Counted from the first letter of the stretch, positions 9,401-42,587 are shown. The stretch is 64,000 nucleotides of DNA from Candidatus Micrarchaeota archaeon (GCA_003660975.1 QMVG01000004.1:23836-87835); one strand, 5' to 3'. Notes: a model not told the origin generated them from the sequence alone. Numbers and translations: made by a program.

Positions 9401-10558
9401 GTTGAACACTGGACCATTGCCTGCTTTGTCTTTTTTTACCCATATGCTTATATTGTAGCAGCCGTCGTCAAATTCAGTTGTGTCTATGGTTTTATAGAAA
9501 ATATTGGCGCTGTCATTTGACATGTTAAGGTGAGAGCCGTAATTTGAGTAATAATATTGGTCGCTTGCATTATCGCATGGTGTTACATCCATCTGAACAT
9601 TGTCTTCATTGCTTGGTAGCCCTGAGAGGTTTTCTGATATTCTCACAGTTACGTTATATGTTCCATTTATGTGGCTGCCAGCAGTCGGCTGCTGGAAAAT
9701 TATGATTGGGTCTTTGTTGTCAATGCCTATAAACCACGTTACGAATGCCCTATTGCTTGAAGCGTCCGTGACAGTTATATTAAAGTAATAACTGCCATCG
9801 CTAACACTCTGCGTGATTGGATATGCATTCCACTTTCCATTATTGTTGTCACCACTGTACCTGTTCATCCCAAAGCTTTGCAGTTCATCTGCAGGATTGC
9901 TGCCATTTGCGATGTAAAGCACTGCAGAGCTTATGCCGTAGCCCACATCAGTCAGGCTCACGTTTACCGTGACTCCGTCTGATATATACGTGAAATTATT
10001 ATACCAAACAGTTAGGTTGTATAGGGTTTGAGCATATGTCATAAACAGCGTGCCTGTGTTTATCTCTGGAGCTTTGGTGTCAAGGACATCTATGCTGAAG
10101 TTCTTGAACACAGACGAACCGTTCGTATCATAGTCAAAGTAGCTAAGGTTATAGTCGTGGTGATATTCTCCTATGTAAACTTTGAACACCACTGTAACAC
10201 TCTTATTTGGTGCCAATCCCAGCAAGGTGGTATTGCTGGATGCGTTTACAGTGCAGTTCATAGCAGGCATATCCCTGAACATTCCAATATCGCAGCTGAC
10301 ATTTTCACTGCTTGGGCCAGCCAGAAATTCAGAAAAATTACACTCATTTGGATTGCTGAAATTCGCCAATGTAAGGTTAAACTTAGTTATGTTATCATCA
10401 GAGCTTGCGTTATTCTCAATAGTGATTTGCAAGGTGTGAAATCCTGTGTCGTTTACAGTGCTTTGGTTTAGGGTTACAATAGCAACATGTGAAGATACGG
10501 TGCTTTGGGCTATAAAAACAAAAAAGAGAGCTATAAGGAAAATATACTTAATTTTCAT
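6407..10558 (-). CDS. Large cell-surface / S-layer-like glycoprotein with Ig-like repeats
   Basis: Signal peptide, many N-x-S/T sequons, 'D-x-x-x-P-x-I/V' Ig-like boundaries, Ser-rich linker, Cys-rich segment, TM helix and basic tail. Confidence 0.8.
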   Translation of the reverse strand: MKIKYIFLIALFFVFIAQSTVSSHVAIVTLNQSTVNDTGFHTLQITIENNASSDDNITKFNLTLANFSNPNECNFSEFLAGPSSENVSCDIGMFRDMPAMNCTVNASSNTTLLGLAPNKSVTVVFKVYIGEYHHDYNLSYFDYDTNGSSVFKNFSIDVLDTKAPEINTGTLFMTYAQTLYNLTVWYNNFTYISDGVTVNVSLTDVGYGISSAVLYIANGSNPADELQSFGMNRYSGDNNNGKWNAYPITQSVSDGSYYFNITVTDASSNRAFVTWFIGIDNKDPIIIFQQPTAGSHINGTYNVTVRISENLSGLPSNEDNVQMDVTPCDNASDQYYYSNYGSHLNMSNDSANIFYKTIDTTEFDDGCYNISIWVKKDKAGNGPVFNTTNITIDNDAPAVNITAPGNGSNVSGISSKVNFTVSDYNLLNDTIMINFGTGWQLIDASEDCSHNVHIWNLTCSYDWDTSKEHPGYYNITVKANDSYKHQGTSTVINVYVRAQSNVSITANNANVPMGYLHHPVLINNTGNVNYNVTVELRNTDDWPIYLNDSSGWGTSITFELQAHNSRYFYVDGHLNSSIGGGNSTLVLLNFSYLSGSNKLPISYDPSTNSSSFSLTMKEEYNVSVSANKTVYKNFSIPQANISVLLTVSNVGNNASSYTLSVSPGAGLSSNTSTVSIRLNKSESKNITVNISVSSSYSGNTTVNISVKSSKNQSYSDAVILYFYEPMLNISYVGPDTGKITETYYSGDLGDKDAKLKVFFKARVMTFGYISWSSLQHTVNKSNCTLSWRKGVLKSITSRVFDNSSTSMYCEFNASQLDVNGVNGGGLYNITISLTDNQSRKGSITELSKVPVLRNSTLESNIVIGSVSSASATEGESFSTTVSGIRYNISCNGSSVNAYVYGTVTVYYEIGYSACAGSISGSSSKTLTSCSIPDAGTYDAMVDVDGVWGLVGSKNFTNKFTISESSTNDNTGSSSSSAGSSESSGSEQVPGISAVGVSKVVAEAGKNKTISLTIENTLSTGRAVYIFVEQDYNIIKVFQGKRSVSVSGGEVKQYSFNYTTDEYTRPGNYTVIIRGANNNKDKIYFDKEITIEVKEKPRPSNKVSVRRYFLDTPSNKTIVSLSVYNPLSTTKRTKIRETVPKDIAPNVSYIVFDNNVPTVIEADPVLEWTLDVKAKSKAEVNYTVNLVEDKDEFMDESQPSVVSTESIEETTAACDVECPEGYEVNENCECVFKCLDTVCPEEQVLNISDCSCYTPAQKEKAAGDSTIYVAAGGIASFAVVIVLLYFFKRALLMDVLDSVKEFLNKIKALFGRSKYPISKASSKSPFKSFSLPKLPKRKRKAAPKIRTKSGKVLAEYEADEEKTLFSYKIGKKKKAPRDDDFNIV

Positions 10559-28617: not shown

Positions 28618-29119
28618 TTTCTGGGATGAGGATGAGGAGTTCCTGCAGCGCAGCGATGGAAAATATAGAAAACTGGTTAGCTGTATTGTTTACTGGGGCA
28701 ATGCAGAGCAGTTTCTCTTGCTTCACAGGAAACTCAGGTGGCATGGTTATGAGTTTCCAAAAGGGGGGATAAAGAAAGGAGAGAGTTTGGAGGAAGCAGC
28801 CAGAAGAGAGCTGAGAGAGGAAGCAGGCATAGAAGACATAATTTCAATAAAAGACACGGGGATTGAGATTAAATACAAGTGGCCTCCTGAAATCGTGAAG
28901 CACCCAGGCAATAAGAACAAATACGATGGTGCAATACAACACTTTATGCTGGTAAAAGTTCCGTACAAAAAAGCAGAGGTAAAGAGCGATGAGCACGATG
29001 GCCTTCTCTGGGCAAGAGCAAATGTTGTGGATGAGTACCTTGCTTTTGAAAACCTGAGACAGGCCTTTAGAAAAGCATTAAAAATGATAGCAGAGGTAAA
29101 AGATAATAGGCCCCAGTAG
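28610..29119 (+). CDS. NUDIX hydrolase
   Basis: Nudix box GGIKKGESLEEAARRELREEAG; stop codon lies inside tRNA-Thr. Confidence 0.9.
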   Translation: MDDFWDEDEEFLQRSDGKYRKLVSCIVYWGNAEQFLLLHRKLRWHGYEFPKGGIKKGESLEEAARRELREEAGIEDIISIKDTGIEIKYKWPPEIVKHPGNKNKYDGAIQHFMLVKVPYKKAEVKSDEHDGLLWARANVVDEYLAFENLRQAFRKALKMIAEVKDNRPQ

Positions 29120-29224
29120 CTCAATGGCAGAGCGCTCGCCTCGTAGGCCTTTCAATGATGACTGCTAAAAAGCGCTGAGAGCCGAGAAAGCGAGAGGTTG
29201 AGGGTTCAAATCCCTCCTGGGGCT
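29110..29224 (+). tRNA. tRNA-Thr(CGU) with 43-nt intron at 37/38 (29146-29188)
   Basis: GCCCCAG/CTGGGGC-T acceptor; anticodon CGT 29142-29144; canonical bulge-helix-bulge (CTCG/CGAG helix, TAG and AAA bulges). Confidence 0.92.
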
Positions 29225-29387: not shown

Positions 29388-30554
29388 CTTTCCAATTCTT
29401 CTGATTGTGCTTCCGTAGTGTTTTATCACGTATATCAAAAGCGCAGGGCTAATCAGAGTTGCAAGCACGGATGATGAGACAATCGCAGTAAAGAGTATTG
29501 AGTCTATGATTTTGTTGACGAAGAGGAATTGGGCAACAGCAAGCTCGGTAGAGAACCTTATGGACAGGGCTATGCCTGCAAAGAGGCCTCCAATGTCCTT
29601 GAACCTCTTTTTCATAAACGCCCAGCTGACAGCCACCTTTGTGGCCATAGGTATGACATAGAATGCTATCGTAAGCATTGGGAATATCAGTATTGAATGA
29701 ATGTCTAAGCTCATCCCAACCCATGCAAAGAACAAAGGGCCAAAGAGAGAGTAGCCAACGCTTCTTATGCCATAGTCTGCCATTTTTAATTCATTTGATG
29801 GAACTAGGTTTCTTAAAGCGATTCCTGCCAAGATTGCCCCAATGCCCTCTGCTTTTGCAAAGTCACCCAAGGCCAGGAAAACGAAGAATATAGCAAAGCC
29901 AGCCAGCATCAGCTGTTCAATCTCAGGGAACCTGAACAGCCTTCTCTTGACCTTTTTTGTTTTTACAAAAATAAGCGTTGTAATAACCATAAGCCCTATT
30001 ATTACAAAAGACGCTAGAATGTTAAAGAGCGAAGAAAAGCCAACCTTTGTTACTATCAAACCAGCAATAAGCAGCGCGGCCACCTCAAAAACATCATCCA
30101 AGACTCCAATACCTATGACAGCAGCCCCTATCTTTGTGTTCAGCAGCTTGAACTCATCAAGGATTGGCACTAAGACCGCCTCCCCTACACAGTGTGCGGT
30201 TAGGCCTATCACAAGAGCAACAGAGAAGGGATAGCCAAAAGCCATTAATACTAATGTCCACACAGCTGTTGACAAAACCTGGATGCCTAAGGTTGTTTTC
30301 ACCACAACATCTGATATCTCTCTTAGCTTCTCCGTGCTCAGGTTAAAGCCAACCAGAAAAAGCATAAAGTACATGCCAAGACTGCCTAACAGCTCATAGT
30401 CAGAAAAACCAGAAAAAGATTCATTAAGCCCTAGGAGATTAAACGCTATCCCAACGAGCAGAGCAGCGAACAGCCATGGAATCCTGAGCTTTTCAAATAA
30501 GTGCCCTAAAATCAGCGTCACTAAGAATATAATTGCTATAATGTACAGTAGCAT
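29385..30554 (-). CDS. Cation:proton antiporter (CPA2/Kef-like)
   Basis: About 12 TM helices; 'GIGVLDDV' motif; PLFFAWVG. Confidence 0.85.
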   Translation of the reverse strand: MLLYIIAIIFLVTLILGHLFEKLRIPWLFAALLVGIAFNLLGLNESFSGFSDYELLGSLGMYFMLFLVGFNLSTEKLREISDVVVKTTLGIQVLSTAVWTLVLMAFGYPFSVALVIGLTAHCVGEAVLVPILDEFKLLNTKIGAAVIGIGVLDDVFEVAALLIAGLIVTKVGFSSLFNILASFVIIGLMVITTLIFVKTKKVKRRLFRFPEIEQLMLAGFAIFFVFLALGDFAKAEGIGAILAGIALRNLVPSNELKMADYGIRSVGYSLFGPLFFAWVGMSLDIHSILIFPMLTIAFYVIPMATKVAVSWAFMKKRFKDIGGLFAGIALSIRFSTELAVAQFLFVNKIIDSILFTAIVSSSVLATLISPALLIYVIKHYGSTIRRIGK

Positions 30555-30586
30555 ATTGCCTATTAAGGAATTGTTATATTAAATGT

Positions 30587-30829
30587 TTATTCCTTATAGA
30601 CCCTCACGTTTTCGTGAACCTTCTGCTCAACCTTCATGCCTATGTCATCGCCTGGCTTTGCCTCTTCTATGTTTTCATGCTCTATCTGCATTGACTCAAC
30701 CTTTTGGCTGAAATCAACATTCGCTCCCTTGAAGTGGACAGTGTCTCCTACTTTTATGTTTCCTGTTACCTTTATTACTGCTACTCCTATCTTATTGAAG
30801 TAATGAGTGACAACTCCAACCTCTTCCAT
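30587..30829 (-). CDS. Translation elongation factor-like (EF-Tu domain 2 beta-barrel) protein
   Basis: VGVVTHYFNKIGVA...VGDTVHFKG...QKVESMQIEH. Confidence 0.8.
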   Translation of the reverse strand: MEEVGVVTHYFNKIGVAVIKVTGNIKVGDTVHFKGANVDFSQKVESMQIEHENIEEAKPGDDIGMKVEQKVHENVRVYKE

Positions 30830-30861
30830 GTTAAAAATTGCTGCGTAAATAGAATATAAAT

Positions 30862-31053
30862 TTAATGTATTGATAGGGATGATATTATGTCATCTATTTC
30901 CTCTAAATGCTCTGTTTTCTGCTGCCATAAAAACTTAAACTCCCTAATTATATTTTCCTCTATACAGTCGTTTATTATTCTTTCATAGCCTTGCTTTACC
31001 TCTTCCTCAGATCTCCTTATTTTCTCCATTAGCTCAAGCAGCTCAGAAGACAT
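30862..31053 (-). CDS. Small ferritin-like helix-pair protein
   Basis: 'EEEVKQGY...FKFLWQQKTEH' pattern; start overlaps the upstream stop. Confidence 0.5.
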   Translation of the reverse strand: MSSELLELMEKIRRSEEEVKQGYERIINDCIEENIIREFKFLWQQKTEHLEEIDDIISSLSIH

Positions 31054-31285
31054 GCGCATCACTCTTTTCAATAGCTTCCAGAACCTTCTCCAACCTGTCC
31101 TTGTGCTCTTCTGCCTCCTTTCCCATTTGGACAAGCAGCACGAAGACTCTCTTTCCAGAGTCAGAGCCGTCTGACCTTATTATTTCAGATGCCTGCTGGT
31201 AGAGGTCTCGCAGCGCTTCTTCATCTTTTATTAGTTTCTCTATCTCCCTGCCCAGGGCCTGCTTTTCCATGCTGTGATAAGGCAT
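31043..31285 (-). CDS. Small ferritin/rubrerythrin-like helix-pair protein
   Basis: 'EEALRDLY...MGKEAEEHKDRLE' E...ExxH-type pattern. Confidence 0.6.
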   Translation of the reverse strand: MPYHSMEKQALGREIEKLIKDEEALRDLYQQASEIIRSDGSDSGKRVFVLLVQMGKEAEEHKDRLEKVLEAIEKSDAHVF

Positions 31286-31377
31286 TACTCATATAAAACA
31301 GTGCTTTCGTCTATTGCCTGCAAAAAGTTTATATATTAGTTTATTAACTTTAATATGCCACGCAAAGAGGGAGTTAT

Positions 31378-31491
31378 ATGCAAATACCAGAAGAGGAGTT
31401 CCCTGACGAGGACTGGGACTGGGACGATGAGGATGACTTGGACATCCCTTGGGACGAGGATGACGAGTTCCTGGAGGATGAGGAGGAATAA
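31378..31491 (+). CDS. 37-aa ultra-acidic peptide
   Basis: MQIPEEEFPDEDWDWDDEDDLDIPWDEDDEFLEDEEE*; GAGGGAG SD-like and TTTATATA box upstream. Confidence 0.6.
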   Translation: MQIPEEEFPDEDWDWDDEDDLDIPWDEDDEFLEDEEE

Positions 31492-32430
31492 TTAAAGCAC
31501 TGCCTTACTGCTCAGGAAGAGCAGGTATAAGGCAAGTAGGAAGATAAAGCTTATTGCTTCCCATTTTTCAAACCTGTTTCTTATGATGCTTATTGTCATC
31601 AAGATCGAGAACGCAAGCATTATGTAAAAGTCAAGAACGTTTTTAGCAAATGAGAGAGGCAGGGCTTTTAACATTGAGGCAGTGCCAAGCACTAATAAAA
31701 TATTGCTTACATTGCTTCCTATTATGGTTCCTACTGAAACATCTCCGTAATTCTTTTTAAAGGCTGTTAATATAGTTGTAAACTCAGGAAGGCTTGTCCC
31801 AAAAGCCACTATGCCTGCACTCATTGCCCACTTGCTTATGCCAAGCAGGTAAAAAATGCTCACAACAGCATATATCACTAATCTTGCTCCAAAGTATAGG
31901 GAAAAAAGGGCAATAACCACCAATGCCACGTCCTTTACGTTTAGCTTTTCCCTTTTCACTACGTTATTAGACCTGAATATCTTTTCTTCCTTGTACAGCG
32001 TTTTTAGGTATATAAAATACAGAAGCACCATGAAGAAGCCAATTATTGATGGAATGTATCCATAAAAGCCGAGCGCGAATAGCATCAAAGCGCTTACTAA
32101 CAGCCAAACAGCGTCCCTGTCAAGCACCTTTTTTTCAAAGACCCTATATTTTTTTGCTATAAGGCCTGCAGCTATTATGAAAATGCTTATGTTGAAAATA
32201 TTGCTTCCAACGATGTTTCCAACGCTTATGCTGGCCTCTGCTTGCCAGCTTGCCAAACTGCTGACAGCCAGCTCTGGCAAGCTTGTGCCGATTGCCATTA
32301 CTGTTAGCCCAATAAAGAGCCTGCTTATGCCCAAAGCCTTTGCAATCCTGACAGCTGCGTCTACCCCGTAATCAGCGCCTTTTGCGAGCAAAGCTATTCC
32401 GATAAGCAATGTTAAAAACTCTAAAAGCAT
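31492..32430 (-). CDS. Ca2+/Na+ antiporter (CaCA, YrbG-like)
   Basis: Two alpha repeats GTSLPE...GNIVGSN and GTSLPE...GTIIGSN. Confidence 0.92.
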   Translation of the reverse strand: MLLEFLTLLIGIALLAKGADYGVDAAVRIAKALGISRLFIGLTVMAIGTSLPELAVSSLASWQAEASISVGNIVGSNIFNISIFIIAAGLIAKKYRVFEKKVLDRDAVWLLVSALMLFALGFYGYIPSIIGFFMVLLYFIYLKTLYKEEKIFRSNNVVKREKLNVKDVALVVIALFSLYFGARLVIYAVVSIFYLLGISKWAMSAGIVAFGTSLPEFTTILTAFKKNYGDVSVGTIIGSNVSNILLVLGTASMLKALPLSFAKNVLDFYIMLAFSILMTISIIRNRFEKWEAISFIFLLALYLLFLSSKAVL

Positions 32431-32542
32431 CCAATCTCCTTGGCCACTGTCTCTCAGCTTACAGCTCATTTTTAGCAGCTATTCTTATAAATAGCTTTCT
32501 ATCAAATCTTTTTATACCTGTAAGCAGATAAAAAACAACATC

Positions 32543-32626
32543 GCAGGGGTGCCGGAGTGGCCAAACGGGATGGACTCAAGATCCATTGGCTTAGTGCCTT
32601 CGAGGGTTCGAATCCCTCCCCCTGCA
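32543..32626 (+). tRNA. tRNA-Leu(CAA)
   Basis: GCAGGGG/CCCCTGC-A acceptor, ATGGA-CT-CAA-GA-TCCAT, long variable arm. Confidence 0.95.
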
Positions 32627-32912
32627 CTAGGGACCGAAGGTCCCTATTGGGGGCTTCAGTTTCGCTTAAGCCTTTAACATCGGAATAACAGGAAAGGCTT
32701 AAATCCCTCCCCCTGCACTAAGCTTTTTCCTATGAAAACTGTGGAAAAAGCTTAAGCAAAAAAGAGGGGGAGGGAAGTTTTGATGAAACTTTTGCTAAAA
32801 GTTTCAATCCCTCCCCCTGCATTGCAACGCAGCTCGTTGCATCCGCAGGCGATCTTCGATCGCCTTTGCTTAAGCCTTTGACACAGAAAGGATAGGAAAG
32901 GCTTAAATCCCT
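32627..32912. repeat. Hairpin-rich tract with repeated tRNA-Leu 3' ends and palindromic elements
   Basis: aatccctccccctgca at 32702-32717 and 32806-32821 (equals tRNA 32611-32626); palindromes at ~32664-32700, 32719-32764 and ~32868-32904. Confidence 0.85.
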
Positions 32913-32945
32913 GTGCTGTTAAAATACCAGTGAAGAGGTCAAGGC

Positions 32946-33206
32946 ATGAGGATTGAGAAGAAAATATGGCCGGAGTATTTTCAGAAAATAATTGATGGAG
33001 TCAAAACCTTTGAGTTAAGGCTGGCAGATTTTGAGTGCAGGCCTGGTGACATACTGGTTTTGAGGGAATGGGACCCAAGAACAAAAGAGTACACGGGCAG
33101 AGTTATTGAAAAGAAGGTCACTTACGTGGCCAAAAGCAAAGACATGAGGTCCTGGCCTGACGAGGACATAAGGAAATATGGGTTTCTGGTTATTGGGTTT
33201 AAATGA
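32946..33206 (+). CDS. ASCH/PUA-like (DUF3850-type) protein
   Basis: KIWPEYF..IIDGVKTFELR..D....GDILVLREW motif. Confidence 0.85.
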   Translation: MRIEKKIWPEYFQKIIDGVKTFELRLADFECRPGDILVLREWDPRTKEYTGRVIEKKVTYVAKSKDMRSWPDEDIRKYGFLVIGFK

Positions 33207-33269
33207 GCGGCGGTTGATATGTTTTCAATGGTGGCCATATGATTAGATAATCGACAAACATGCGAATCC

Positions 33270-33278
33270 TTTTTATAT
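33270..33278 (+). promoter_or_regulatory. Probable TATA box for a leaderless cas12f transcript
   Basis: TTTTTATAT ending 22 nt upstream of ATG 33300. Confidence 0.45.
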
Positions 33279-33299
33279 GTGAAAACAAGAAATAAAACG

Positions 33300-35060
33300 A
33301 TGCCATCCGAAACATACATTACGAAAACCTTGTCATTAAAACTCATTCCATCAGATGAAGAAAAGCAGGCGTTAGAAAACTATTTTATAACATTCCAGAG
33401 GGCCGTGAATTTTGCTATAGATAGAATAGTAGATATAAGAAGCTCCTTTAGATATCTAAACAAAAATGAACAATTTCCAGCCGTGTGTGATTGCTGTGGT
33501 AAGAAAGAAAAGATAATGTATGTGAATATATCCAATAAAACCTTTAAGTTTAAACCATCAAGAAATCAGAAGGATAGATACACGAAGGACATTTATACAA
33601 TCAAGCCCAATGCCCACATATGTAAGACATGCTACAGTGGCGTTGCAGGAAATATGTTTATACGCAAACAAATGTATCCGAACGATAAAGAAGGGTGGAA
33701 AGTTTCGCGTTCATACAATATCAAAGTTAATGCCCCTGGACTGACTGGAACCGAATATGCTATGGCCATACGGAAGGCAATAAGTATATTAAGATCTTTT
33801 GAAAAGCGACGAAGAAATGCTGAAAGAAGAATCATAGAGTATGAAAAGTCCAAAAAAGAGTATTTAGAATTGATTGATGATGTTGAAAAAGGAAAGACAA
33901 ATAAAATAGTGGTTCTTGAGAAAGAAGGCCATCAGCGAGTGAAAAGATATAAACACAAGAATTGGCCTGAGAAATGGCAAGGTATTTCTTTAAATAAAGC
34001 AAAAAGTAAGGTTAAAGATATTGAGAAAAGAATAAAAAAGCTCAAGGAGTGGAAACACCCTACACTAAATCGACCATATGTCGAGTTACACAAAAATAAT
34101 GTTAGGATAGTGGGTTATGAAACAGTGGAACTTAAATTAGGAAACAAAATGTACACCATACATTTTGCTAGCATATCTAATTTACGAAAACCATTTAGAA
34201 AACAAAAGAAAAAGTCCATAGAATATCTGAAACATCTCCTAACCCTAGCGTTAAAAAGAAATCTTGAAACATACCCCAGCATAATAAAAAGAGGTAAGAA
34301 TTTCTTTTTGCAGTATCCTGTGCGAGTGACAGTTAAAGTGCCTAAGCTGACAAAAAATTTTAAAGCTTTTGGCATCGATAGAGGCGTAAATAGGCTTGCA
34401 GTAGGTTGTATAATCTCAAAAGATGGAAAACTTACCAATAAAAATATTTTTTTCTTCCATGGAAAGGAAGCGTGGGCCAAGGAAAACAGATACAAGAAGA
34501 TTAGGGACAGATTATACGCTATGGCCAAGAAGTTGAGAGGAGATAAAACCAAGAAAATAAGGCTTTATCATGAGATTAGGAAGAAATTTAGACATAAAGT
34601 CAAATATTTCAGGAGAAACTATCTGCATAATATCTCTAAGCAAATTGTTGAGATTGCAAAGGAAAATACACCGACTGTCATCGTATTAGAAGATTTACGG
34701 TACTTGAGAGAAAGGACATATAGAGGAAAAGGAAGAAGCAAAAAGGCGAAAAAAACAAATTATAAATTAAATACTTTTACTTACAGAATGCTTATAGATA
34801 TGATAAAATACAAGGCAGAAGAAGCGGGAGTTCCTGTAATGATTATTGACCCAAGAAACACATCACGAAAATGTTCTAAGTGTGGTTATGTTGACGAAAA
34901 TAATAGAAAACAAGCCTCGTTTAAGTGCCTTAAGTGTGGTTATAGTCTTAATGCAGACTTAAATGCAGCTGTCAATATAGCAAAAGCTTTTTATGAATGC
35001 CCCACGTTTAGATGGGAAGAAAAATTGCATGCATATGTTTGTTCAGAGCCCGATAAATAG
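33300..35060 (+). CDS. cas12f: Type V-F CRISPR effector Cas12f (Cas14; Cas12f2/Cas14b-like), 586 aa
   Basis: RuvC-I FGIDRG, RuvC-II IVLEDL, Zn ribbon CSKC/CLKC, RuvC-III NADLNAAVNI; adjacent to anti-repeat, array and cas1/2/4; no tnpA. Confidence 0.93.
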   Translation: MPSETYITKTLSLKLIPSDEEKQALENYFITFQRAVNFAIDRIVDIRSSFRYLNKNEQFPAVCDCCGKKEKIMYVNISNKTFKFKPSRNQKDRYTKDIYTIKPNAHICKTCYSGVAGNMFIRKQMYPNDKEGWKVSRSYNIKVNAPGLTGTEYAMAIRKAISILRSFEKRRRNAERRIIEYEKSKKEYLELIDDVEKGKTNKIVVLEKEGHQRVKRYKHKNWPEKWQGISLNKAKSKVKDIEKRIKKLKEWKHPTLNRPYVELHKNNVRIVGYETVELKLGNKMYTIHFASISNLRKPFRKQKKKSIEYLKHLLTLALKRNLETYPSIIKRGKNFFLQYPVRVTVKVPKLTKNFKAFGIDRGVNRLAVGCIISKDGKLTNKNIFFFHGKEAWAKENRYKKIRDRLYAMAKKLRGDKTKKIRLYHEIRKKFRHKVKYFRRNYLHNISKQIVEIAKENTPTVIVLEDLRYLRERTYRGKGRSKKAKKTNYKLNTFTYRMLIDMIKYKAEEAGVPVMIIDPRNTSRKCSKCGYVDENNRKQASFKCLKCGYSLNADLNAAVNIAKAFYECPTFRWEEKLHAYVCSEPDK

Positions 35061-35194
35061 CAAATTTACTTATTCGGAGCCTGTTTAAGCCATTAGAAAA
35101 AGATAAATATTAAGAAGCACATAATTTATTTTGGTTACATATCACTGGATAATGAGAACAGCTGTAGATTAAGCTGTTTGATGTATTGTATTAT

Positions 35195-35311
35195 GCTCCA
35201 CTTTAATAAGTGGTGCCTTCCAAAGCTATATGCTGAGGGAGGATGGGCGCTGTTGCAGCGTCTGCCCACCTCAGAGTGGGTATCCTTACCTATTTTGAAA
35301 GGTTCTGTAAG
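35195..35311 (+). ncRNA. Putative tracrRNA (5' end uncertain, may start near 35140)
   Basis: Anti-repeat tccttacctattttgaaaggttctgtaa at 35283-35310; GTTGCA at 35252-35257 complementary to the repeat 3' end; several hairpins. Confidence 0.8.
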
Positions 35312-35402
35312 TGTTTATAAATCCGATTGCAATTTTGCAACTTACCTATTTTTAAGTTTCAGATATCTCGATAGACGCAGCAATACTCAAAAATTGTCTG
35401 CC
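35312..35402 (+). promoter_or_regulatory. CRISPR leader
   Basis: AT-rich, TTTATAAA at 35314-35321, next to the first intact repeat and opposite the degenerate last repeat. Confidence 0.6.
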
Positions 35403-36501
35403 ATTGCAGAACCCAAAGTAATAGGTCAAGGAATGCAACTGACTAAACAAAGTTTCGCTAAACTAGAAGAACAGGCCAATTGCAGAACCCAAAGTAATAG
35501 GTCAAGGAATGCAACTCAATATCAGACGCTTTATTCACTCTAGGAGCTACCCTTATTGCAGAACCCAAAGTAATAGGTCAAGGAATGCAACATTATATTT
35601 ATTGTTATGTTATCATATCTCCCAAACAAAAGTATTGCAGAACCCAAAGTAATAGGTCAAGGAATGCAACTAGGTGTTGTTAAGCGACACGGTTAGAAGG
35701 TAATCTTGATTATTGCAGAACCCAAAGTAATAGGTCAAGGAATGCAACTCGGCCTTTTTCCAGCCAAGGGCTTTTACTATTGCCCTATTGCAGAACCCAA
35801 AGTAATAGGTCAAGGAATGCAACCAAGCGAAAAGTATTTATATAACATAGGTTTGTTTCATTGCAGAACCCAAAGTAATAGGTCAAGGAATGCAACTATT
35901 CTTCCAAATTCAACACCTCCAAAATATTTATAATTGCAGAACCCAAAGTAATAGGTCAAGGAATGCAACTTGACAGCCAAGCTAGAAAGTTGTTAAACAG
36001 CTTTAATTGCAGAACCCAAAGTAATAGGTCAAGGAATGCAACTATGTTAAAATCGCTATCGGGCGTGGAAGGGGGTAGCGAATTGCAGAACCCAAAGTAA
36101 TAGGTCAAGGAATGCAACCATAGTATCCCTGCGTTTGCTCTGCAACCGCAGGTTGTCTATTGCAGAACCCAAAGTAATAGGTCAAGGAATGCAACTCTGG
36201 ATATCTGGTCCCTCCACGAAACCATCACCATCATTGCAGAACCCAAAGTAATAGGTCAAGGAATGCAACCACCTTTTGGTATAGCCCAGAAGCATCAAAA
36301 ACATGTGAAAAATTGCAGAACCCAAAGTAATAGGTCAAGGAATGCAACTCTTTTTAGCTTTTCTCGGCAGTTTATACCACATATCCTTATTGCAGAACCC
36401 AAAGTAATAGGTCAAGGAATGCAACGGTAATGTCAGCCCATCTGACGCAACGGCATTTGAGACAATTGCAGAACCCAAAGTAATAGGTCAAGGAATGCAT
36501 G
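35403..36501 (+). CRISPR. CRISPR array: 15 repeats of ATTGCAGAACCCAAAGTAATAGGTCAAGGAATGCAAC (37 bp), 14 spacers of 36-42 bp
   Basis: Repeats start at 35403, 35479, 35555, 35634, 35712, 35787, 35860, 35933, 36006, 36082, 36159, 36233, 36312, 36389, 36465; the last ends GCATG instead of GCAAC. Confidence 0.99.
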
Positions 36502-36543
36502 AGAACCACATAATTTTTAAATTGCAGGTACTTATCATTTTTT

Positions 36544-37533
36544 ATGATTTTAGTGATAAACGATTTTTCAACATTCCTGGGGAAGAAAGGGGACCGTTTT
36601 GTAATTAAAAAGGAAAATAAGCGTGAAGAATTTTCTACAAATAACGTTGAACAAATCATAATTGCTGCAGTCTCATCTATCTCCTATGGAGCTATTCGAT
36701 TGGCAATTAAACACTCTATTGATGTGGTTTTTTTAAGCAGAGGAGGTACTCCTTTAGGCAGGATATACCCCTGTAAACTCGGTGGAACAACCTTAACGAG
36801 AAAAAAACAATTAGAGGCTTATTATTCAACAGTTGGTACAAACATCGTAAAAAATCTCGTTAAAGCAAAGATTATGAACCAAGCCTATTTTTTGAAGTCT
36901 TTAGAAAAAACAAGAAAAGATATTAATTTCACTTCTGAAATTAACAGCATTGTTAATATTGCTAAAAAGATTCCAGGTCTCACAGGTCTAATAGATGATA
37001 TACGGGGAACTTTATTGGGATATGAAGGCATTGCAGCCAACAAATATTTTAGTTCCTTGTCTAACATACTACCATTTAAAGGAAGGGACAGAACAAGTAA
37101 TGATTACGTAAATATTGTATTGAATTATGGATATGGTGTTCTGTACACGGAAGCAGAGAAAGCGTGTATTCTAGCAGGTCTTGATCCATATTTCGGTTTT
37201 TTGCACAAAGATAGGTACAACAAACCTTCAATGGTATTGGACCTTGTGGAAATATTTAGACCAATCATAGTGGACAGGGCAGTTGTTACTTTGTTTTCCC
37301 AAAAACAGATAAATTCGAAGTGTTTTGAGAAAGAAACATATGGGGATGTTTTTTTAAGTAAAGAGGGTAGGGAAAAAATCTTATCTGCTCTTCTATCTCG
37401 CCTCAATCAGCAGATACGCTTTAAAGGTAAGAAAACAAGCTTTAAAAACATCATATTAGGAGAAAGCCGTTCTATAGCTCAATATGTTCTTGGTAATATA
37501 CCAGAATATGAGCCGTTTGTTTATAGGTGGTAA
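36544..37533 (+). CDS. cas1: CRISPR-associated integrase Cas1
   Basis: LLGYEGIAANKYF, NIVLNYGY, GLDPYFGFLH, LDLVEIFRPIIVD. Confidence 0.97.
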   Translation: MILVINDFSTFLGKKGDRFVIKKENKREEFSTNNVEQIIIAAVSSISYGAIRLAIKHSIDVVFLSRGGTPLGRIYPCKLGGTTLTRKKQLEAYYSTVGTNIVKNLVKAKIMNQAYFLKSLEKTRKDINFTSEINSIVNIAKKIPGLTGLIDDIRGTLLGYEGIAANKYFSSLSNILPFKGRDRTSNDYVNIVLNYGYGVLYTEAEKACILAGLDPYFGFLHKDRYNKPSMVLDLVEIFRPIIVDRAVVTLFSQKQINSKCFEKETYGDVFLSKEGREKILSALLSRLNQQIRFKGKKTSFKNIILGESRSIAQYVLGNIPEYEPFVYRW

Positions 37534-37535
37534 TT

Positions 37536-37820
37536 ATGATATATTGGGTGATTTATGACATCACAGACAATAAAGTTAGAAGCAAGGTTGCCGAGGAGTG
37601 CAAGAACTTGGGGTTACATCGAGTCCAAAAAAGTTCTTTTATTGGCATTCTCTCTAGAAATACAGCCGAGATGTTATATATTAAAATAGGGGATTTAATT
37701 GATAAAAGAGATTGTGTGTTCTTTATTCCACAATGTAACAAATGTTTTGCAGACAAACTTATTCTTGGCGATTTTGATGAAAGGACTGTAGAAGCAAAAG
37801 ATTTCATCGTGGTGCAATGA
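37536..37820 (+). CDS. cas2: CRISPR-associated Cas2
   Basis: VIYDITDNKVR...GLHRVQKSSF. Confidence 0.95.
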   Translation: MIYWVIYDITDNKVRSKVAEECKNLGLHRVQKSSFIGILSRNTAEMLYIKIGDLIDKRDCVFFIPQCNKCFADKLILGDFDERTVEAKDFIVVQ

Positions 37821-38410
37821 CAACGATGGATGGTTATTTAACTGCTAAGGATTTAATGAACTTTCATTATTGTAAAAGATTAATATATTTTGAGAATGTA
37901 TTGAAAATTAAACAAGCTACAACCACCAAAGAACTAAAAGGTCGCGCATTACACAACAGTTTTTCTGTATCATCAAAGAGAACCAAGATAATAAAGGAGT
38001 TTCCATATTGGCCTAAGATATATAATCTTAGATTAAAATCAGATTTTTTGCACCTTATAACTACATTAGACTGCTTGATTATAAACCAAACAGATAATGA
38101 GGCATTTCCGCTGGAATACAAATATTCCAAAAAACCACGCAAGATTTATAAAACCATGAAATTGCAACTGTCTCTTCAAGCCCTTCTCGTAAATGAACTT
38201 TTACATTATAGTGTGAAGTTTGGTTTCATAAAGTTTTCCAAAGACAATTCTTTGGCCAAAGTAAGCATAACAGATAGAGATTTAGAAGAAGTGAGAACGA
38301 CTATATCTGAGGTTAATACAATAGTAGAGAAGGAGATTTTACCTCCACCCACCGAATATAAAAAAAGATGTATTGACTGTTGCTATTTCAATATATGCAA
38401 AGGAATCTAA
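37817..38410 (+). CDS. cas4: CRISPR-associated Cas4
   Basis: YCKR...G..LH, D...EYK, QL, C-terminal CIDCCYFNIC Fe-S Cys cluster. Confidence 0.93.
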   Translation: MTTMDGYLTAKDLMNFHYCKRLIYFENVLKIKQATTTKELKGRALHNSFSVSSKRTKIIKEFPYWPKIYNLRLKSDFLHLITTLDCLIINQTDNEAFPLEYKYSKKPRKIYKTMKLQLSLQALLVNELLHYSVKFGFIKFSKDNSLAKVSITDRDLEEVRTTISEVNTIVEKEILPPPTEYKKRCIDCCYFNICKGI

Positions 38411-38418
38411 ACACCCTC

Positions 38419-40173
38419 TCACTTCACAGTCACACTCTTGGCCAGGTTTCTGGGCCTGTCGGGGTCTAGGCCTTTGAGGACGGCCAGTTGGTAGGCCAGT
38501 ATCTGGATTGGGATGATTTGGAGGATTGGGCCGAGCTCCTCGCTTTCAGGCGTTTTTATCCAGTAGTCAAAAATATCGTAATTTTTGTGAGAGACTCCGA
38601 TGACATAGGCCCCTCTTGTTTTTACCTCATTTGCGTTTGCTATGATGTCTTTGTCATCCTTGGAAACAAAGACAATAACAGGGCTTCCTTTTTTTATCAG
38701 AGCCAGGGGGCCATGCTTTAGCTCTCCTCCTGCAAAGGCCTCTGCGTGTATGTATGACACCTCCTTGATCTTTAGGGCAGCCTCCAGTGCTGTTGGATAC
38801 TGCAGGGACCTTCCTAGCACGTATATGTGTTCCTCATTTAAGAGGCGTTTGGCTAATGCCCTGAGCCTGTCTCTCATGTTCCTAGACGTCAGGTTGTATA
38901 TATCCATGTAAAGCTTTTTCAATTTTGCCATGCCCTCATCGTATCTTCCAGCGATTGTGTAGGCCAGCATTGCCATTAATGCCACCTGCGACGTGTATGT
39001 CTTGGTTGAGAGCACTGACAGTTCTGGCCCTGCGTTCATGAGAAGAGATTCGTGGCTCTCTCTTGTCAGAGATGAAGCAGCCCTGTTTACTATGCTTATA
39101 ATCTTACTCTGCTTTTCCTTAGCTGCTCTGACTGCCTCCAAAACATCAGCTGTTTCGCCTGACTGTGAGATAGCGATTATCATGCTTTCTTTCTTCAGGA
39201 AGTGCTTGTAATTCTTGAACTCAGAAGCCAAGACAGGGTTAACGTGCATTTTAGCTACTTTTGAAAATAAGTAACTGCCTGTCAAGCATGCGTGGTAGCT
39301 TGAGCCGCAGCCTATCAAGAAAACACCTCTAGCCTCTTTGAGCTGTTTTGCTATCCTCTCAACAAGCTCTCTTTTTTGCTGTATGGCTCTTCTTATTGTG
39401 TCGCTCTGCTCAACAATCTCCTTTAACATGTAGTGCTCAAAGCCATCCTTTTTTATCTGCTCAGCTTTCCACTCAACGCTGTCTATTGGCCTTGAAACAA
39501 AGCCGTCCTTGAGATTGTATATCTTTATCTCTTTTCCTGCCTCAACCACATCGTAGTCATGTAGGTAAATCACCTTTTTGGTCCAGTCAATAAATGAAGG
39601 TATGTCTGATGAAAAGAAAAAGGCATCACTAGAAACCCCAACTACTAAAGGAGAGCCTTTCCTAGCTGCCATGACCTTATTGCTCTTAGCCTCTATTGCT
39701 AACACAGCATAGCTTCCTTTGAGCTTTGATATTGCCTTTATGAAAGCTTTATCAAAAGGCAAATCTTTCATTTCCTCTTCAATTAAGTGAGCTATGACCT
39801 CTGAATCTGTTTCTGATTTGAAGCTATGGCCTTTCAGTTCCTTTTTAAGCTCTTCAAAGTTTTCTATTATGCCATTGTGCACCACTGCTATATTGCCAGA
39901 GCAGTCAAGGTGGGGGTGGGCGTTTACATCGTTTACCTTTCCGTGAGTGGCCCACCTGTTATGAGCTATGCCTATGTTGCCTTCAATGCTTGGGAAATCT
40001 ACCTTTTTATTTATCTCTTCAACCTTGCCAGCCCCTTTCTTGCAGATTATCCTCCCGCTGTCAATTACAGCCATGCCTGCAGAGTCATAGCCCCTGTACT
40101 CAAGGCTCTTTAATCCCTTTAGAAGAATGCCTGACGCACGCTCTGGTCCAATATATCCTATTATGCCGCACAT
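38419..40173 (-). CDS. glmS: Glutamine--fructose-6-phosphate aminotransferase
   Basis: MCGIIG N-terminus, YRGYDSAG, SQSGETAD, GELKHGP, PRNLAKSVTV. Confidence 0.97.
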   Translation of the reverse strand: MCGIIGYIGPERASGILLKGLKSLEYRGYDSAGMAVIDSGRIICKKGAGKVEEINKKVDFPSIEGNIGIAHNRWATHGKVNDVNAHPHLDCSGNIAVVHNGIIENFEELKKELKGHSFKSETDSEVIAHLIEEEMKDLPFDKAFIKAISKLKGSYAVLAIEAKSNKVMAARKGSPLVVGVSSDAFFFSSDIPSFIDWTKKVIYLHDYDVVEAGKEIKIYNLKDGFVSRPIDSVEWKAEQIKKDGFEHYMLKEIVEQSDTIRRAIQQKRELVERIAKQLKEARGVFLIGCGSSYHACLTGSYLFSKVAKMHVNPVLASEFKNYKHFLKKESMIIAISQSGETADVLEAVRAAKEKQSKIISIVNRAASSLTRESHESLLMNAGPELSVLSTKTYTSQVALMAMLAYTIAGRYDEGMAKLKKLYMDIYNLTSRNMRDRLRALAKRLLNEEHIYVLGRSLQYPTALEAALKIKEVSYIHAEAFAGGELKHGPLALIKKGSPVIVFVSKDDKDIIANANEVKTRGAYVIGVSHKNYDIFDYWIKTPESEELGPILQIIPIQILAYQLAVLKGLDPDRPRNLAKSVTVK

Positions 40174-40194
40174 AAGCAAAACTTCCGAAATCCT

Positions 40195-40524
40195 TTATTT
40201 TGTTATGATAGAGTCAGACGTAGATAGGGGAGGAGCTGCTATTATCAGAACCTTCATCCTGCCAACAGCCTTATGCCTTACCCTTGGCGGGATAACAACT
40301 AGATCAGAAGCTTCTACATCTATTTTATTGCCGTCTAAGTATACAGATCCTTTCCCCTCTAATATGTAATAATATTCTTTAGAGTTGTTGTGGTAATGCT
40401 CCTCTGCCTCTTCAATATCAACAATGTCAATGCTTATTCTCTCATCATCCAAAACATCGCGCACTTTACCGCAATGGCCTTCTCTCTGTCTAATTTTTTC
40501 TGTTTTTATCAAAAAGTTTTTCAT
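40195..40524 (-). CDS. Cupin domain protein
   Basis: HYH...EYYYILEGKG...VIPPRVRH. Confidence 0.85.
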   Translation of the reverse strand: MKNFLIKTEKIRQREGHCGKVRDVLDDERISIDIVDIEEAEEHYHNNSKEYYYILEGKGSVYLDGNKIDVEASDLVVIPPRVRHKAVGRMKVLIIAAPPLSTSDSIITK

Positions 40525-40577
40525 TACAGCACCAATTATATTTAGCAATCTTTTTATTTAACCCTTGTGTAAAGATA

Positions 40578-41666
40578 ATGGTTTGCATGGAAAAGGTTTC
40601 TATTATACAAGTTGGTTTCGGAAATGCTGCCAGGATTCACAGGGAAGCCTTCAAGAGACAGGGCATTCCAGTGGAAAATATAATTGTCATCGAAAAAGAC
40701 CCAGCAAAGATTATAGAAGCCAAGAAGCAGGGCTTTAGAGTGTTTAAAAGCCTTAATGAGCTCAACCCAAGGCTTCTTAAGAAAAGCATACTGGATATTT
40801 GTGTCCCCACCGCTGAGCATTACAGCGTTCTGAAAGAAGCTGTTAAATTGGGAGCAAAGAAGATTCTAGTAGAAAAACCTATGGTGTCCCCAGAAGACGT
40901 AAATAAGGTTAGAAAATTATTAAGGGAGTTTGATGGTCGTATTGTTGTAAATGAAAACTACAAATCATCTGTTGTTACAAAAGAAATAAAAAAACAGCTC
41001 AGGGGAAAGCTACCCGAGATTGTTGTTACCGAATTTTCTAAAAACAGAAGGCCTGATATAGAGCGCGGGCGTTTTATAGATAAAAAGTTGGGAGCAGCGG
41101 GTTATGAAGGGCCACACCAGGTCGTTGTTGCTTCTGAGCTTGCTGGCGCACCTATTGAAATTAAAGAGGTTAAATTTGAAGACATGCGATTGTCAGATGG
41201 CACTATATTACCTATGCAGGCCAGCGTTGAAATAGAGTACAGGAGCAAAAGAACGGACAATACAAAGCTTCTGTCCTCCATGGTGGGCGAGATTAAGCAC
41301 CCCACAAAACCATTTAAAGTGATGACTGCCTTAAACGATGTTAAAGACCCAAGACATAGATACAGGATTTTACATGTCAAAGCTGACAAAGGTATAGAGG
41401 TGATAGGCATATACGAGCCAATACCTGGGCAACCAAGGAGCAGGGCAAGCGTGTGGAAATTTGTTAAAGGGATTGCGGAGATCAGAGACAGGAGGCTGAT
41501 AGATGACTCAATGGGGGCCCACCTGCGGGAGTCTATTAAATTCCTGGCAGGGGAGAAGAAGAGAAACCCATATAACCCTGAGAAGGCGCTAAAAAATGTA
41601 GAGCTGCTTTACAGTGCTGTTAAGAAGGCACGTGAGTCAAGGCAGAGAGTCAGAAGGCGCAGGTAA
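40578..41666 (+). CDS. Gfo/Idh/MocA family oxidoreductase
   Basis: VGFGNAARIH, DICVPTAEH, ILVEKP. Confidence 0.8.
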   Translation: MVCMEKVSIIQVGFGNAARIHREAFKRQGIPVENIIVIEKDPAKIIEAKKQGFRVFKSLNELNPRLLKKSILDICVPTAEHYSVLKEAVKLGAKKILVEKPMVSPEDVNKVRKLLREFDGRIVVNENYKSSVVTKEIKKQLRGKLPEIVVTEFSKNRRPDIERGRFIDKKLGAAGYEGPHQVVVASELAGAPIEIKEVKFEDMRLSDGTILPMQASVEIEYRSKRTDNTKLLSSMVGEIKHPTKPFKVMTALNDVKDPRHRYRILHVKADKGIEVIGIYEPIPGQPRSRASVWKFVKGIAEIRDRRLIDDSMGAHLRESIKFLAGEKKRNPYNPEKALKNVELLYSAVKKARESRQRVRRRR

Positions 41667-41963
41667 TCTTTTACATTACTTTTTATAAAGTGCATGCTAT
41701 GATGACAGCCAGACCAGTTGCTTGACTCCTGAGACATTAAAAACAATATAAAAACAATAAAATGAAAGTGTATGGCGACAGTGAGAAATATGGGGGTGGC
41801 CAAGCACCACTGGTGAGACACGTGGATGAGACGAGGCAAGGAGATACCTTAGAAAACATATTTTATGATATGGTATCTGGGAGTTGAACCCATAGTTAAT
41901 AGAAGCAACAGTTAATAGAAGCAACATAGGGTACATTGTGCTGACAGCATAAGCAGGAAATAA

Positions 41964-42587
41964 CTATTCCTTAACTGCGAAGACGTTTATCCAGGTGTGT
42001 TTCTTGTTTTTCTCCTTTTCGACTATGAGCTTTAAAATTCTGAAATCACAAGCTTCAAGCAATTTTTTGATTTCATCTTTAGTGTAGAATGCGAAGAACC
42101 TTGCCTTTCCTTTGTATGCCTTTTTTTCAACCATCTTTTCGCCAGAGCCTTCCATAACAGATAGGTAAAGTAGCCCAGAAGGTTTCAGTACTTTTCTGAA
42201 ACCCCACAAAGTTCTTTTCGCATCTTCTTTTGGGATGTGCAAAAAAGAGGCAGAGGCCCAAATGCCATCAAAAAAATTTTCCGGAAAATTGAGAGCCCTA
42301 ATGTCCATTTGCACAAACCTGGCATTTGGCACATTTTGGGAGGCCACCTTTATGAAATTAGAGGCCAAGTCAATGCCGATTACTTCCAGGCCCTTATCTG
42401 TAAAATATCTTGCGTCCCTTCCTGGCCCACAGCCAGCATCTAAAACTCTCTTGCCCTTTAAATTCCGAACAAAGAAATCCGCAAAATTCTCTATTTTCTC
42501 AAGGTCATCAAAATGCCTTTTGCGATACTCTTCTGCAAATTCCTCATAGGTTTTTATTGTTTTTGTAACCACGTCGTCTGTGTTCAC
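41964..42587 (-). CDS. Class I SAM-dependent methyltransferase
   Basis: VLDAGCGPGRD, FDGIWASASFLH, LKPSG. Confidence 0.9.
   Translation of the reverse strand: MNTDDVVTKTIKTYEEFAEEYRKRHFDDLEKIENFADFFVRNLKGKRVLDAGCGPGRDARYFTDKGLEVIGIDLASNFIKVASQNVPNARFVQMDIRALNFPENFFDGIWASASFLHIPKEDAKRTLWGFRKVLKPSGLLYLSVMEGSGEKMVEKKAYKGKARFFAFYTKDEIKKLLEACDFRILKLIVEKEKNKKHTWINVFAVKE

Follow-up and report, generated by a model that had tools for sequence, protein, structure and literature searches.

The closest described counterparts of the locus studied here, a miniature CRISPR-Cas system at 33270-38410 of a 64,000-nucleotide (nt) stretch of DNA from Candidatus Micrarchaeota archaeon (GCA_003660975.1, QMVG01000004.1:23836-87835; hereafter the window, meaning the whole stretch, numbered from its first letter), are the loci of the nuclease Cas12f2, formerly Cas14b. 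To go by the main text of Karvelis et al. 2020 (PMC7229846), the Cas12f2 enzymes tested so far number only three, Mi1 (= Cas14b4), Mi2 and Au: from minimal loci made up of the gene, a putative trans-activating CRISPR RNA (tracrRNA) region and the array, these enzymes cut double-stranded DNA (dsDNA) at a 5' T-rich protospacer adjacent motif (PAM), 5'-TTAT for Mi1Cas12f2, and for Mi1 the effector proved to be the sole nuclease needed. The same text places cleavage after protospacer position 21 for Cas12f2 and 24 for Cas12f1. A further report (PMC8053092) describes an asymmetric Cas12f dimer on one single guide RNA, and in an engineered Un1Cas12f1 scaffold, as printed in a preprint (bioRxiv 10.1101/2022.10.20.513037), the loop of an upstream hairpin holds TTGCAT.

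Set beside these systems, the window locus is a complete, intact-looking and divergent example of a subtype that is already known and has been studied biochemically, rather than a system of a new kind. We put at about 0.88 the probability that it is a chromosomal type V-F2 (Cas12f2) adaptive immune locus of a small-genome archaeon, a call that sharpens the type V-F assignment of an initial annotation made from the sequence alone. The V-F2 call follows from an effector that scores over the cut-off of a curated hidden Markov model (HMM) and falls in a clade with array-linked effectors, from a repeat, tracrRNA position and adaptation module that are typical of the family, and from the lack of any sign of an insertion sequence (IS). 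The locus shares with Mi1, Mi2 and Au their size class, a putative tracrRNA region between the nuclease gene and the repeats, and the presence of cas1, cas2 and cas4. Its unusual features, namely the gene order, a short tracrRNA module, a zinc-finger insertion and a lone lineage, are variations within the known subtype, and the understanding of how type V-F works is unchanged by them. Cas12f-type nucleases attract genome editors because gene and guide fit small delivery vectors. The present locus, complete as it occurs in nature, has a well-defined anti-repeat and a tracrRNA core of compact size, and so makes a practical start for a further orthogonal miniature nuclease.

Layout of the locus and its effector

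Calling of open reading frames (ORFs) and detection of arrays and repeats put all elements on the + strand, in the order cas12f2, a 342-nt non-coding stretch, the array and cas1-cas2-cas4. The initial annotation had seen a complete miniature system at 33300-38410, with effector, array and adaptation genes on a single strand, and every element was found where it had been placed. It had also remarked on AT-richness: the G+C content of the locus is indeed 35.3%, against 41-45% in the flanks and a mean of 41% over the genome's 5.1-kb windows, and only 0.6% of the 846 such windows, those of the locus itself being counted, are as low.

The effector gene (cas12f2, Cas14b-type; 33300..35060, + strand) is identified by its ORF, by the NCBI curated model NF049972, by residues conserved in 22 sequences and by its clade. 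The ORF runs from a GTG at 33279 or an ATG at 33300 to 35060, giving 593 or 586 amino acids (aa). The 586-aa form is the likely product, since the N-termini of relatives align with the ATG at 33300 and a TATA-like box, TTTTTATAT (33270..33278, + strand, read by eye), lies ~26 nt before it; the alternative GTG would directly abut this box. The spacing of TTTTTATAT suggests that the cas12f2 mRNA is leaderless or near-leaderless.

Profile searches against Cas12f and TnpB models, which the initial annotation had suggested as a check, place the effector over the Cas12f2 cut-off of 450 bits: with NF049972.1 it reaches 501.6 bits, the match spanning residues 18-575 of the 593-aa form and positions 2-523 of the 524 in the profile. 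The effector also passes the guided_TnpB model (135 bits, cut-off 100) and has a Pfam match to Cas12f1-like_TNB (PF07282, 4.2e-23), and its OrfB_IS605 match stays just under the cut-off (29.7 vs 30.5 bits). In common with IS200/IS605 TnpB (ISDra2 TnpB, PDB 8exa/8h1j) it thus has its superfamily, its catalytic core and the guided_TnpB match; unlike such TnpBs it is ~180 aa longer, single-copy, without tnpA and in a separate clade, and its guide would come from a CRISPR array and tracrRNA and not from an element-end reRNA, as the complementarity described below suggests.

The 586-aa TnpB-like protein with a RuvC D-E-D triad and a zinc ribbon was thus correctly recognised from the outset, and its translation contains GIDRG, VLEDL, NADLN and CSKCG...CLKCG. 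To place these residues we aligned the window protein with 21 hand-picked hits (>=510 aa, most of the query matched) from a list of 150. Across these 22 sequences D360 and E464 of the triad D360/E464/D553 are invariant and D553 is kept in at least 90%; the C-terminal zinc ribbon C525/C528/C543/C546 likewise has two invariant residues, C525 and C543, and two, C528 and C546, that are kept in at least 90%. An N-terminal CxxC...CxxC (C63/C66/C108/C111) is conserved as well, with a ~30-aa insertion between the halves of this zinc finger that is common only to the window protein and P0016, its nearest relative among the cluster representatives searched.

Like the V-F1 nuclease Un1Cas12f1 (Cas14a1), the effector is a miniature RuvC and zinc-ribbon nuclease; unlike V-F1 as a whole (Cas12f1/Cas14a, V-U3; PDB 7c7l, 7l48, 7wju, 8dzj, 8j12, 8hr5), its similarity to these proteins is C-terminal only. 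The PDB (2026 copy) holds no entry named Cas12f2 and none matching the effector over its full length. Solved Cas12f1 chains match its C-terminal part, at best over residues 401-568 (E 5.9e-20); Un1Cas12f1 matches residues 336-569 in a single-sequence search (E 6.6e-9) and positions 252-521 of the family profile at about 1e-28 to 1e-30. No solved chain covers more of the profile than positions 140-516, and for positions 1-139 sequence comparison gives no solved relative. In all 13 of the best solved relatives the entry has two chains of identical sequence. A complex prediction for two copies of residues 1-345 scored 0.00 and carries no weight either way.

Relatives and phylogeny

An exhaustive HMMER search of 1.84 billion cluster representatives (50%-identity clusters) returned 11,024 relatives at E <=0.001, 19 of them at E <=1e-30, and superseded a word-index search that had given 12 distant relatives, at most 30% identical. 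The effector is only 37-39% identical to P0016 and stands as a singleton lineage, its 90% cluster holding only two start-codon forms of one gene, on two contigs. The nearest named relatives in public records go by the plain name TnpB, and in the ESM Atlas the nearest are large TnpB clusters only. Among the 80 matches listed of 594 stretches in metagenome contigs none is full-length (these are ordinary TnpBs), and no relative of the effector was found in viral contigs.

A scan of 185,579 species genomes gave 600 stretches, 502 of them confirmed; the figures that follow rest on the 80 matches listed. Among these, at least six are full-length, with a match that starts no later than residue 7 and runs at least to residue 562, and the hosts include Woykebacteria, a Gammaproteobacteria bin, Pacearchaeota, Nanoarchaeota and Hadarchaeales. 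When NF049972 was run on 10 relatives, three passed (548, 574 and 580 bits) and seven fell below the cut-off (327-401 bits).

Five of the six full-length relatives listed (loci L002, L003, L004, L006 and L009) have a same-strand array downstream, with 37-nt repeats ending in GGAATGCAAC, which begins 284-407 nt after the effector gene; in all five, cas1-cas2-cas4, or cas4 at a contig end, adjoins the effector. Our tree of 43 rows comprises the window protein, the effectors of six named loci, 21 full-length hits and 15 short hits of 375-443 aa, the last hand-picked, with ~110 of the 150 listed hits left out. The initial annotation had allowed for a grouping with IS-borne TnpBs; the effector falls instead in a clade of 25 full-length proteins that includes all five array-linked effectors (SH-like approximate likelihood ratio test, SH-aLRT, 99), and the 15 short TnpB-like rows form a clade of their own (SH-aLRT 99).

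The sixth relative, L001 (MHCP01000019.1, a Woykebacteria metagenome-assembled genome), carries a full-length Cas12f2-family gene at 8001-9584 with no array and no cas1, cas2 or cas4 within 8 kb. Its effector shares an SH-aLRT 100 subclade with the array-linked effector of L002, and L001 represents either the loss of an array or a stand-alone use of the protein.

CRISPR array and candidate tracrRNA

The array (35403..36501, + strand, by repeat detection) starts 342 nt past the effector gene and consists of 15 copies of a 37-nt repeat, ATTGCAGAACCC...GGAATGCAAC, and 14 spacers, the number counted in the initial annotation. All but one of the repeats are identical, the last, at the cas1-proximal end, differing in its final two bases; the spacers are all unique and 36-42 nt long. 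A likeness to the Un1Cas12f1 repeat, which had also been pointed out, is borne out at both ends, 5' by TTGCAGAACCC and 3' by AAGGAATGCAAC, each common to the two repeats as far as the printed guide scaffold gives the latter (bioRxiv 10.1101/2022.10.20.513037). The spacers have no match longer than 18 nt elsewhere in the genome. Searched with blastn at E up to 1, the whole array matched nothing among phages or plasmids, and the first 24 nt of five of the 14 spacers (1, 2, 4, 9 and 11) gave no match in viral contigs. Identical repeats, unique spacers, the lack of self-targets and full-length matches for cas1, cas2 and cas4 together make the locus look intact.

Between the anti-repeat and the array lies a leader (35312..35402, + strand) with a TATA-like box, GTTTATAAAT, at 35313-35322, which is likely, from its sequence and place, to be the promoter of the precursor CRISPR RNA (pre-crRNA). 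A TATA-like box right after the anti-repeat is common to the archaeal loci, and L002, from the bin labelled Gammaproteobacteria, has TTGACA. The leader also holds a degenerate copy of the anti-repeat core at 35341-35360, identical at 18 of 21 positions to 35285-35305. We rejected this copy as a second anti-repeat, its duplex being no better than those of shuffled sequences (72 of 300 as good).

The anti-repeat RNA region announced by the initial annotation is real, and on the + strand. There, 35251-35311 pairs with the whole repeat in a duplex of -30.7 kcal/mol, against -18.6 +/- 2.5 kcal/mol in 300 shuffles, of which the best reached -26.4; the minus strand of the non-coding stretch gives a duplex of only -17.1 kcal/mol. 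The anti-repeat proper, the 3' part of the putative tracrRNA (35283..35311, + strand), pairs with repeat positions ~2-30 and stops 91 nt short of the first repeat. A gap of 91-104 nt separates the best + strand duplex from the array in the window and in four of the five relatives (L002, L004, L006 and L009), and by z-score (100 shuffles each) the window duplex is the strongest of the six loci, at -5.1, followed by -3.8 in L006 and -3.1 in L009.

Upstream of the anti-repeat, the + strand has three further predicted elements: a putative tracrRNA core stem-loop with a UAUAU apex (35216..35242; window fold -24.8 kcal/mol, z -2.78), to which the stretches GCTATATGC / GGTATACC are homologous in the aligned loci; a putative core hairpin that carries the sole GTTGCA of the intergenic region (35245..35263); and, from the co-fold, a short hairpin between the latter and the anti-repeat (35264..35281). 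Folded singly, four of the six loci are predicted to form a two-hairpin structure like that of the window. In all six intergenic regions GTTGCA occurs precisely once, atop a small hairpin. Because MAFFT, given whole intergenic regions, misplaced the upstream half of the window's, we re-anchored the alignment on GTTGCA; in it, 94.4% of the 36 cells of this hairpin pair (slid controls pair at 11-61%), two of the six pairs have changes on both sides, and covariation is 0.411 against 0.121 in shuffles, none of 500 being as high.

Since GTTGCA is the complement of the six bases that end the repeat, UGCAAC, contact between tracrRNA and repeat is possible at two places, and from this complementarity the hairpin is a possible pseudoknot partner of the repeat's UGCAAC end. 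The UUGCAU loop of Un1Cas12f1 is, we presume, likewise part of a pseudoknot. A two-part pairing, with a 3' anti-repeat and an internal UUGCA-type hairpin, would thus be common to both systems, the latter element being read off the printed Un1Cas12f1 scaffold. From GTTGCA to the array the distance is 151 nt in the window and 216-247 nt in the five relatives, the module between the GTTGCA hairpin and the anti-repeat being ~65-95 nt shorter in the window. For practical purposes, the GUUGCA hairpin and the 91-104-nt spacing of anti-repeat and array make a usable rule for finding Cas12f2 tracrRNAs.

Adaptation genes

Downstream of the array, all on the + strand, lie cas1 (36544..37533, 329 aa; PF01867 2.3e-77, TIGR00287 275.8 bits), cas2 (37527..37820, 97 aa; PF09827 5.7e-19, TIGR01573 49.9 bits), which overlaps cas1 by 7 nt, and cas4 (37817..38410, 197 aa; PF01930 1.1e-17, TIGR00372 91.7 bits, cut-off 65), which overlaps cas2 by 4 nt. 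All three have full-length Pfam and NCBIfam matches, in keeping with the intact cas1-cas2-cas4 first noted, and the cas4 translation shows by eye a C-terminal cysteine cluster and a D...EYK motif. By eye too, a sequence ~24 nt upstream of the cas1 ATG, TTTTTAAAT (36516..36524, + strand), may serve as a TATA-like box. The intact genes suggest that the system is adaptation-competent. This cas1 is the sole cas1 match in the assembly and is 45-51% identical to the cas1 of three related loci.

Proposed mechanism and alternative explanations

Since the effector and its locus belong with the Cas12f2 family by profile, clade and layout, we infer that they would work by the mechanism of the tested Cas12f2 enzymes. 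The gene would be transcribed from its own TATA box, and the tracrRNA would be made from the + strand of the 342-nt stretch that follows; its anti-repeat at 35283-35311 would pair with approximately the first 30 nt of each 37-nt repeat, and the GUUGCA hairpin at 35245-35263 could pair with the six bases at its 3' end. The leader promoter at ~35313-35322 would drive the pre-crRNA, from which crRNAs would be cut, each beginning with a part of the repeat and having its spacer 3' of that. The 586-aa protein would bind the tracrRNA:crRNA pair, probably as a homodimer like the solved Cas12f1 enzymes, and, as the three tested Cas12f2 enzymes do, would find dsDNA with a 5' T-rich PAM and cut it with its single RuvC site (D360, E464, D553). 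Cas1-Cas2-Cas4 would add spacers at the tracr-proximal, or leader, end, a polarity which the degenerate repeat at the far end fits.

Several observations weigh against this picture of a working V-F2 locus. The gene order is unlike that of all five array-linked relatives, the adaptation genes here following the array and not preceding the effector: L002, L003 and L006 have cas1-cas2-cas4-effector-tracr-array, and L004 and L009, at a contig start, have cas4-effector-tracr-array. In what is a quick tree, the effector sits on a long end branch (1.14), with no starred subclade and no settled position within its clade. As regards the RNA, the covariation of the GTTGCA hairpin comes from six sequences, the structure being derived from the same six; L006 and L009 on their own fold differently and not into the two-hairpin structure; the anti-repeat duplex is weak in L002 (z -2.7) and L004 (z -1.0), and the top duplex of L003 falls elsewhere, although L003 nonetheless has a similar stretch, AATCCCGTTCTGA, in the aligned columns of L004 and L009. 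No protospacer was found in the phage, plasmid and viral-contig searches, so no PAM can be read. The effector is likely to be a dimer by analogy only. Finally, no RNA run is listed for this genome; expression and activity are what the sequence leads us to expect.

The alternative that survives best, which we consider unlikely, is that the same system has already been characterised, its effector being identical to a Cas14b/Cas12f2 protein that Harrington 2018 or Karvelis 2020 had named, such as Mi1 or Mi2. The exact 586-aa sequence is already public, in NCBI, JGI/IMG, ENA and Logan, and the initial annotation mentioned a characterised 586-aa Micrarchaeota Cas12f2; its suspicion of a known protein holds in part, as far as the public record goes. 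A length of 586 aa would fit the ten nucleases tested by Karvelis et al., which in that text span 422-603 aa. One might even speculate that the curators of NF049972 counted this effector among their sequences, as it lies just over a cut-off that seven of the 10 relatives miss. On the other side, neither the N-terminal peptide nor the repeat is printed in the main texts searched, supplementary tables lying outside these; in the searched literature Mi1, Mi2 or AuCas12f2 or Cas14b4 is named by Karvelis et al. alone, in both versions of that paper, with no lengths or sequences in the text; and plain TnpB is the public name of the nearest named relatives.

A contrary idea, offered tentatively and as something we would not bet on, is that the effector represents an uncharacterised, deep-branching Cas12f2 sublineage whose shortened tracrRNA core and moved adaptation module would accompany guide-RNA or PAM requirements of its own, and hence an orthogonal nuclease, and that its Cas1-Cas2-Cas4 may also load spacers of the class 1 system found on another contig of the assembly (C9, below). 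The latter suggestion comes from Cas1-Cas2-Cas4 being the only adaptation module in an assembly with three different arrays.

Could the locus be a decaying or silent relic, disabled by the move of its adaptation genes or by the shortening of its tracrRNA? The lack of a protospacer for any spacer tried, the gene order unlike that of the five relatives, the much shortened module between the GTTGCA hairpin and the anti-repeat, and a second, class 1 system whose 71-repeat array could carry the defence load would all agree with decay. Against this, four genes are free of frameshifts and stops and have full-length HMM matches, no catalytic or zinc residue is lost, all but one of the 15 repeats are identical, no two of the 14 spacers are the same, the anti-repeat complementarity is the strongest of six loci, and TATA-like boxes, by eye, precede each unit; we judge a relic to be quite improbable.

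That an IS200/IS605-type TnpB lies by chance beside an unrelated array and adaptation module is a reading we give almost no credence, for although the guided_TnpB match, the TnpB names and TnpB atlas clusters of the relatives, and the L001 family member without array or cas1/2/4 within 8 kb could be cited in its favour, the gene is single-copy in an assembly without tnpA (IS ends were not searched for), the 586-aa protein has an N-terminal half that short TnpBs lack and groups apart from them with array-linked effectors, and the adjacent RNA region, placed as it is in relatives, is the complement of the repeat next to it.

Possible horizontal transfer

The V-F2 locus was probably acquired by horizontal transfer, as the initial annotation proposed, a plausible origin that is not proven. 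Its low G+C content, the patchy occurrence of the listed relatives over distant phyla, and the fact that one in 31 genomes of the phylum exceeds the Cas12f2 cut-off speak for transfer. If so, it would be a further case of a class 2 system, patchy in its distribution and apparently transferred, that shares a small-genome archaeon with a class 1 system.

Upstream of the locus, tRNA-Leu(CAA) lies at 32543-32627, and exact copies of its last 16 nt recur at 32702-32717 and 32806-32821. We tried and rejected the idea of an island flanked by attachment (att) sites, since to the right of the locus the tRNA 3' end does not recur. Nor was an island-free form found: no contig in the sets of two DNA runs (X1 and X2, which look near-duplicate) joins across the island. 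In the X1 and X2 contigs the locus is fragmented, with breaks at the tRNA-end repeats and within the array, and the difference in depth, 33 vs 42-44, is not interpretable. Both the missing right border and the missing island-free contig weigh against transfer, as does the limited synteny. Downstream of the locus, 38419-40179 is a gene which we take to be glmS-like from its N-terminal MCGIIGY motif; in the window, it and tRNA-Leu(CAA) are convergent and stand on either side of the CRISPR locus, at a distance of 5.8 kb from each other. In a same-order relative, G017 (L185, G017:C2, 1-1903), tRNA-Leu(CAA) follows the glmS-like gene by 54 nt in the same direction, a hint, not proof, of a former adjacency of the two. 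This synteny occurs in one of five same-order relatives only, with the tRNA oppositely oriented, and the four others have no common neighbours.

Around tRNA-Leu we also observed a fourth, more degenerate copy of its 3' end at 32897-32921, the copies being spaced ~100 nt apart, and a 48-nt pair, 83% alike and 204 nt apart. Contigs of the two runs fork near this tRNA, with loose ends at 32631, 32701 and 32782. Their appearance is that of leftovers from repeated integration at the tRNA, or of debris from tRNA halves.

Two 28-nt stretches, at 32508-32535 and 33269-33296, are 71% alike and both begin with CTTTTTATA. They sit ~25-35 nt before tRNA-Leu and before cas12f2, respectively, and are likely to be two copies of a similar archaeal promoter.

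Host genome and other CRISPR systems

The assembly measures 1.33 Mb in 130 contigs and is 89.7% complete. Its small- and large-subunit rRNAs match archaeal Rfam models best, and the phylum's comparison set of 31 species genomes spans 0.3-1.3 Mb (0.3-1.2 Mb for the other 30); by its rRNAs the host is an archaeon, and the small genomes of the phylum fit DPANN. The one phylum genome above the Cas12f2 cut-off is the host itself, seven others having partial TnpB-like matches only. No Y1 transposase (PF01797) was matched in the whole 1.33-Mb assembly, which upholds the earlier statement that tnpA is absent, and guided_TnpB has a single match there, making this a single-copy family. The accompanying statement that cas3, cas5, cas7, cas9 and cas10 are absent holds at the locus, among the ORFs in 30000-42000, and fails for the genome, which has a class 1 operon on contig C9.

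This second CRISPR-Cas system (G000 contig C9, L178, 556-19797) consists of an operon followed by a 71-repeat array. The operon encodes Cas7/DevR, Cmr1-, Cmr6- and Cmr4-like repeat-associated mysterious proteins (RAMPs), Csx11/Cas10, Cas5, Cas3 with HD and a weakly matched Cas6; the array has a different 37-nt repeat and reaches the contig end, and C9 carries no adaptation gene. A third array opens contig C14 (L179, 28-457), with 7 repeats of ~30 nt (ATTTCAATCCCTTATTCCTCAGGTCTAAAC) at a period of 66-67 nt, and the ORFs that adjoin it have weak helix-turn-helix matches only. A k-mer screen also flagged a long run of 78-84-nt units on contig C74 (L180, 550-3160); we rejected it as a CRISPR array, and as the units are multiples of three they probably encode a protein with ~27-aa repeats. 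Within the window itself, 29110-29224 scores as a 115-nt tRNA by Rfam (61.2 bits), is absent from the ARAGORN output, and is probably an intron-containing archaeal tRNA.

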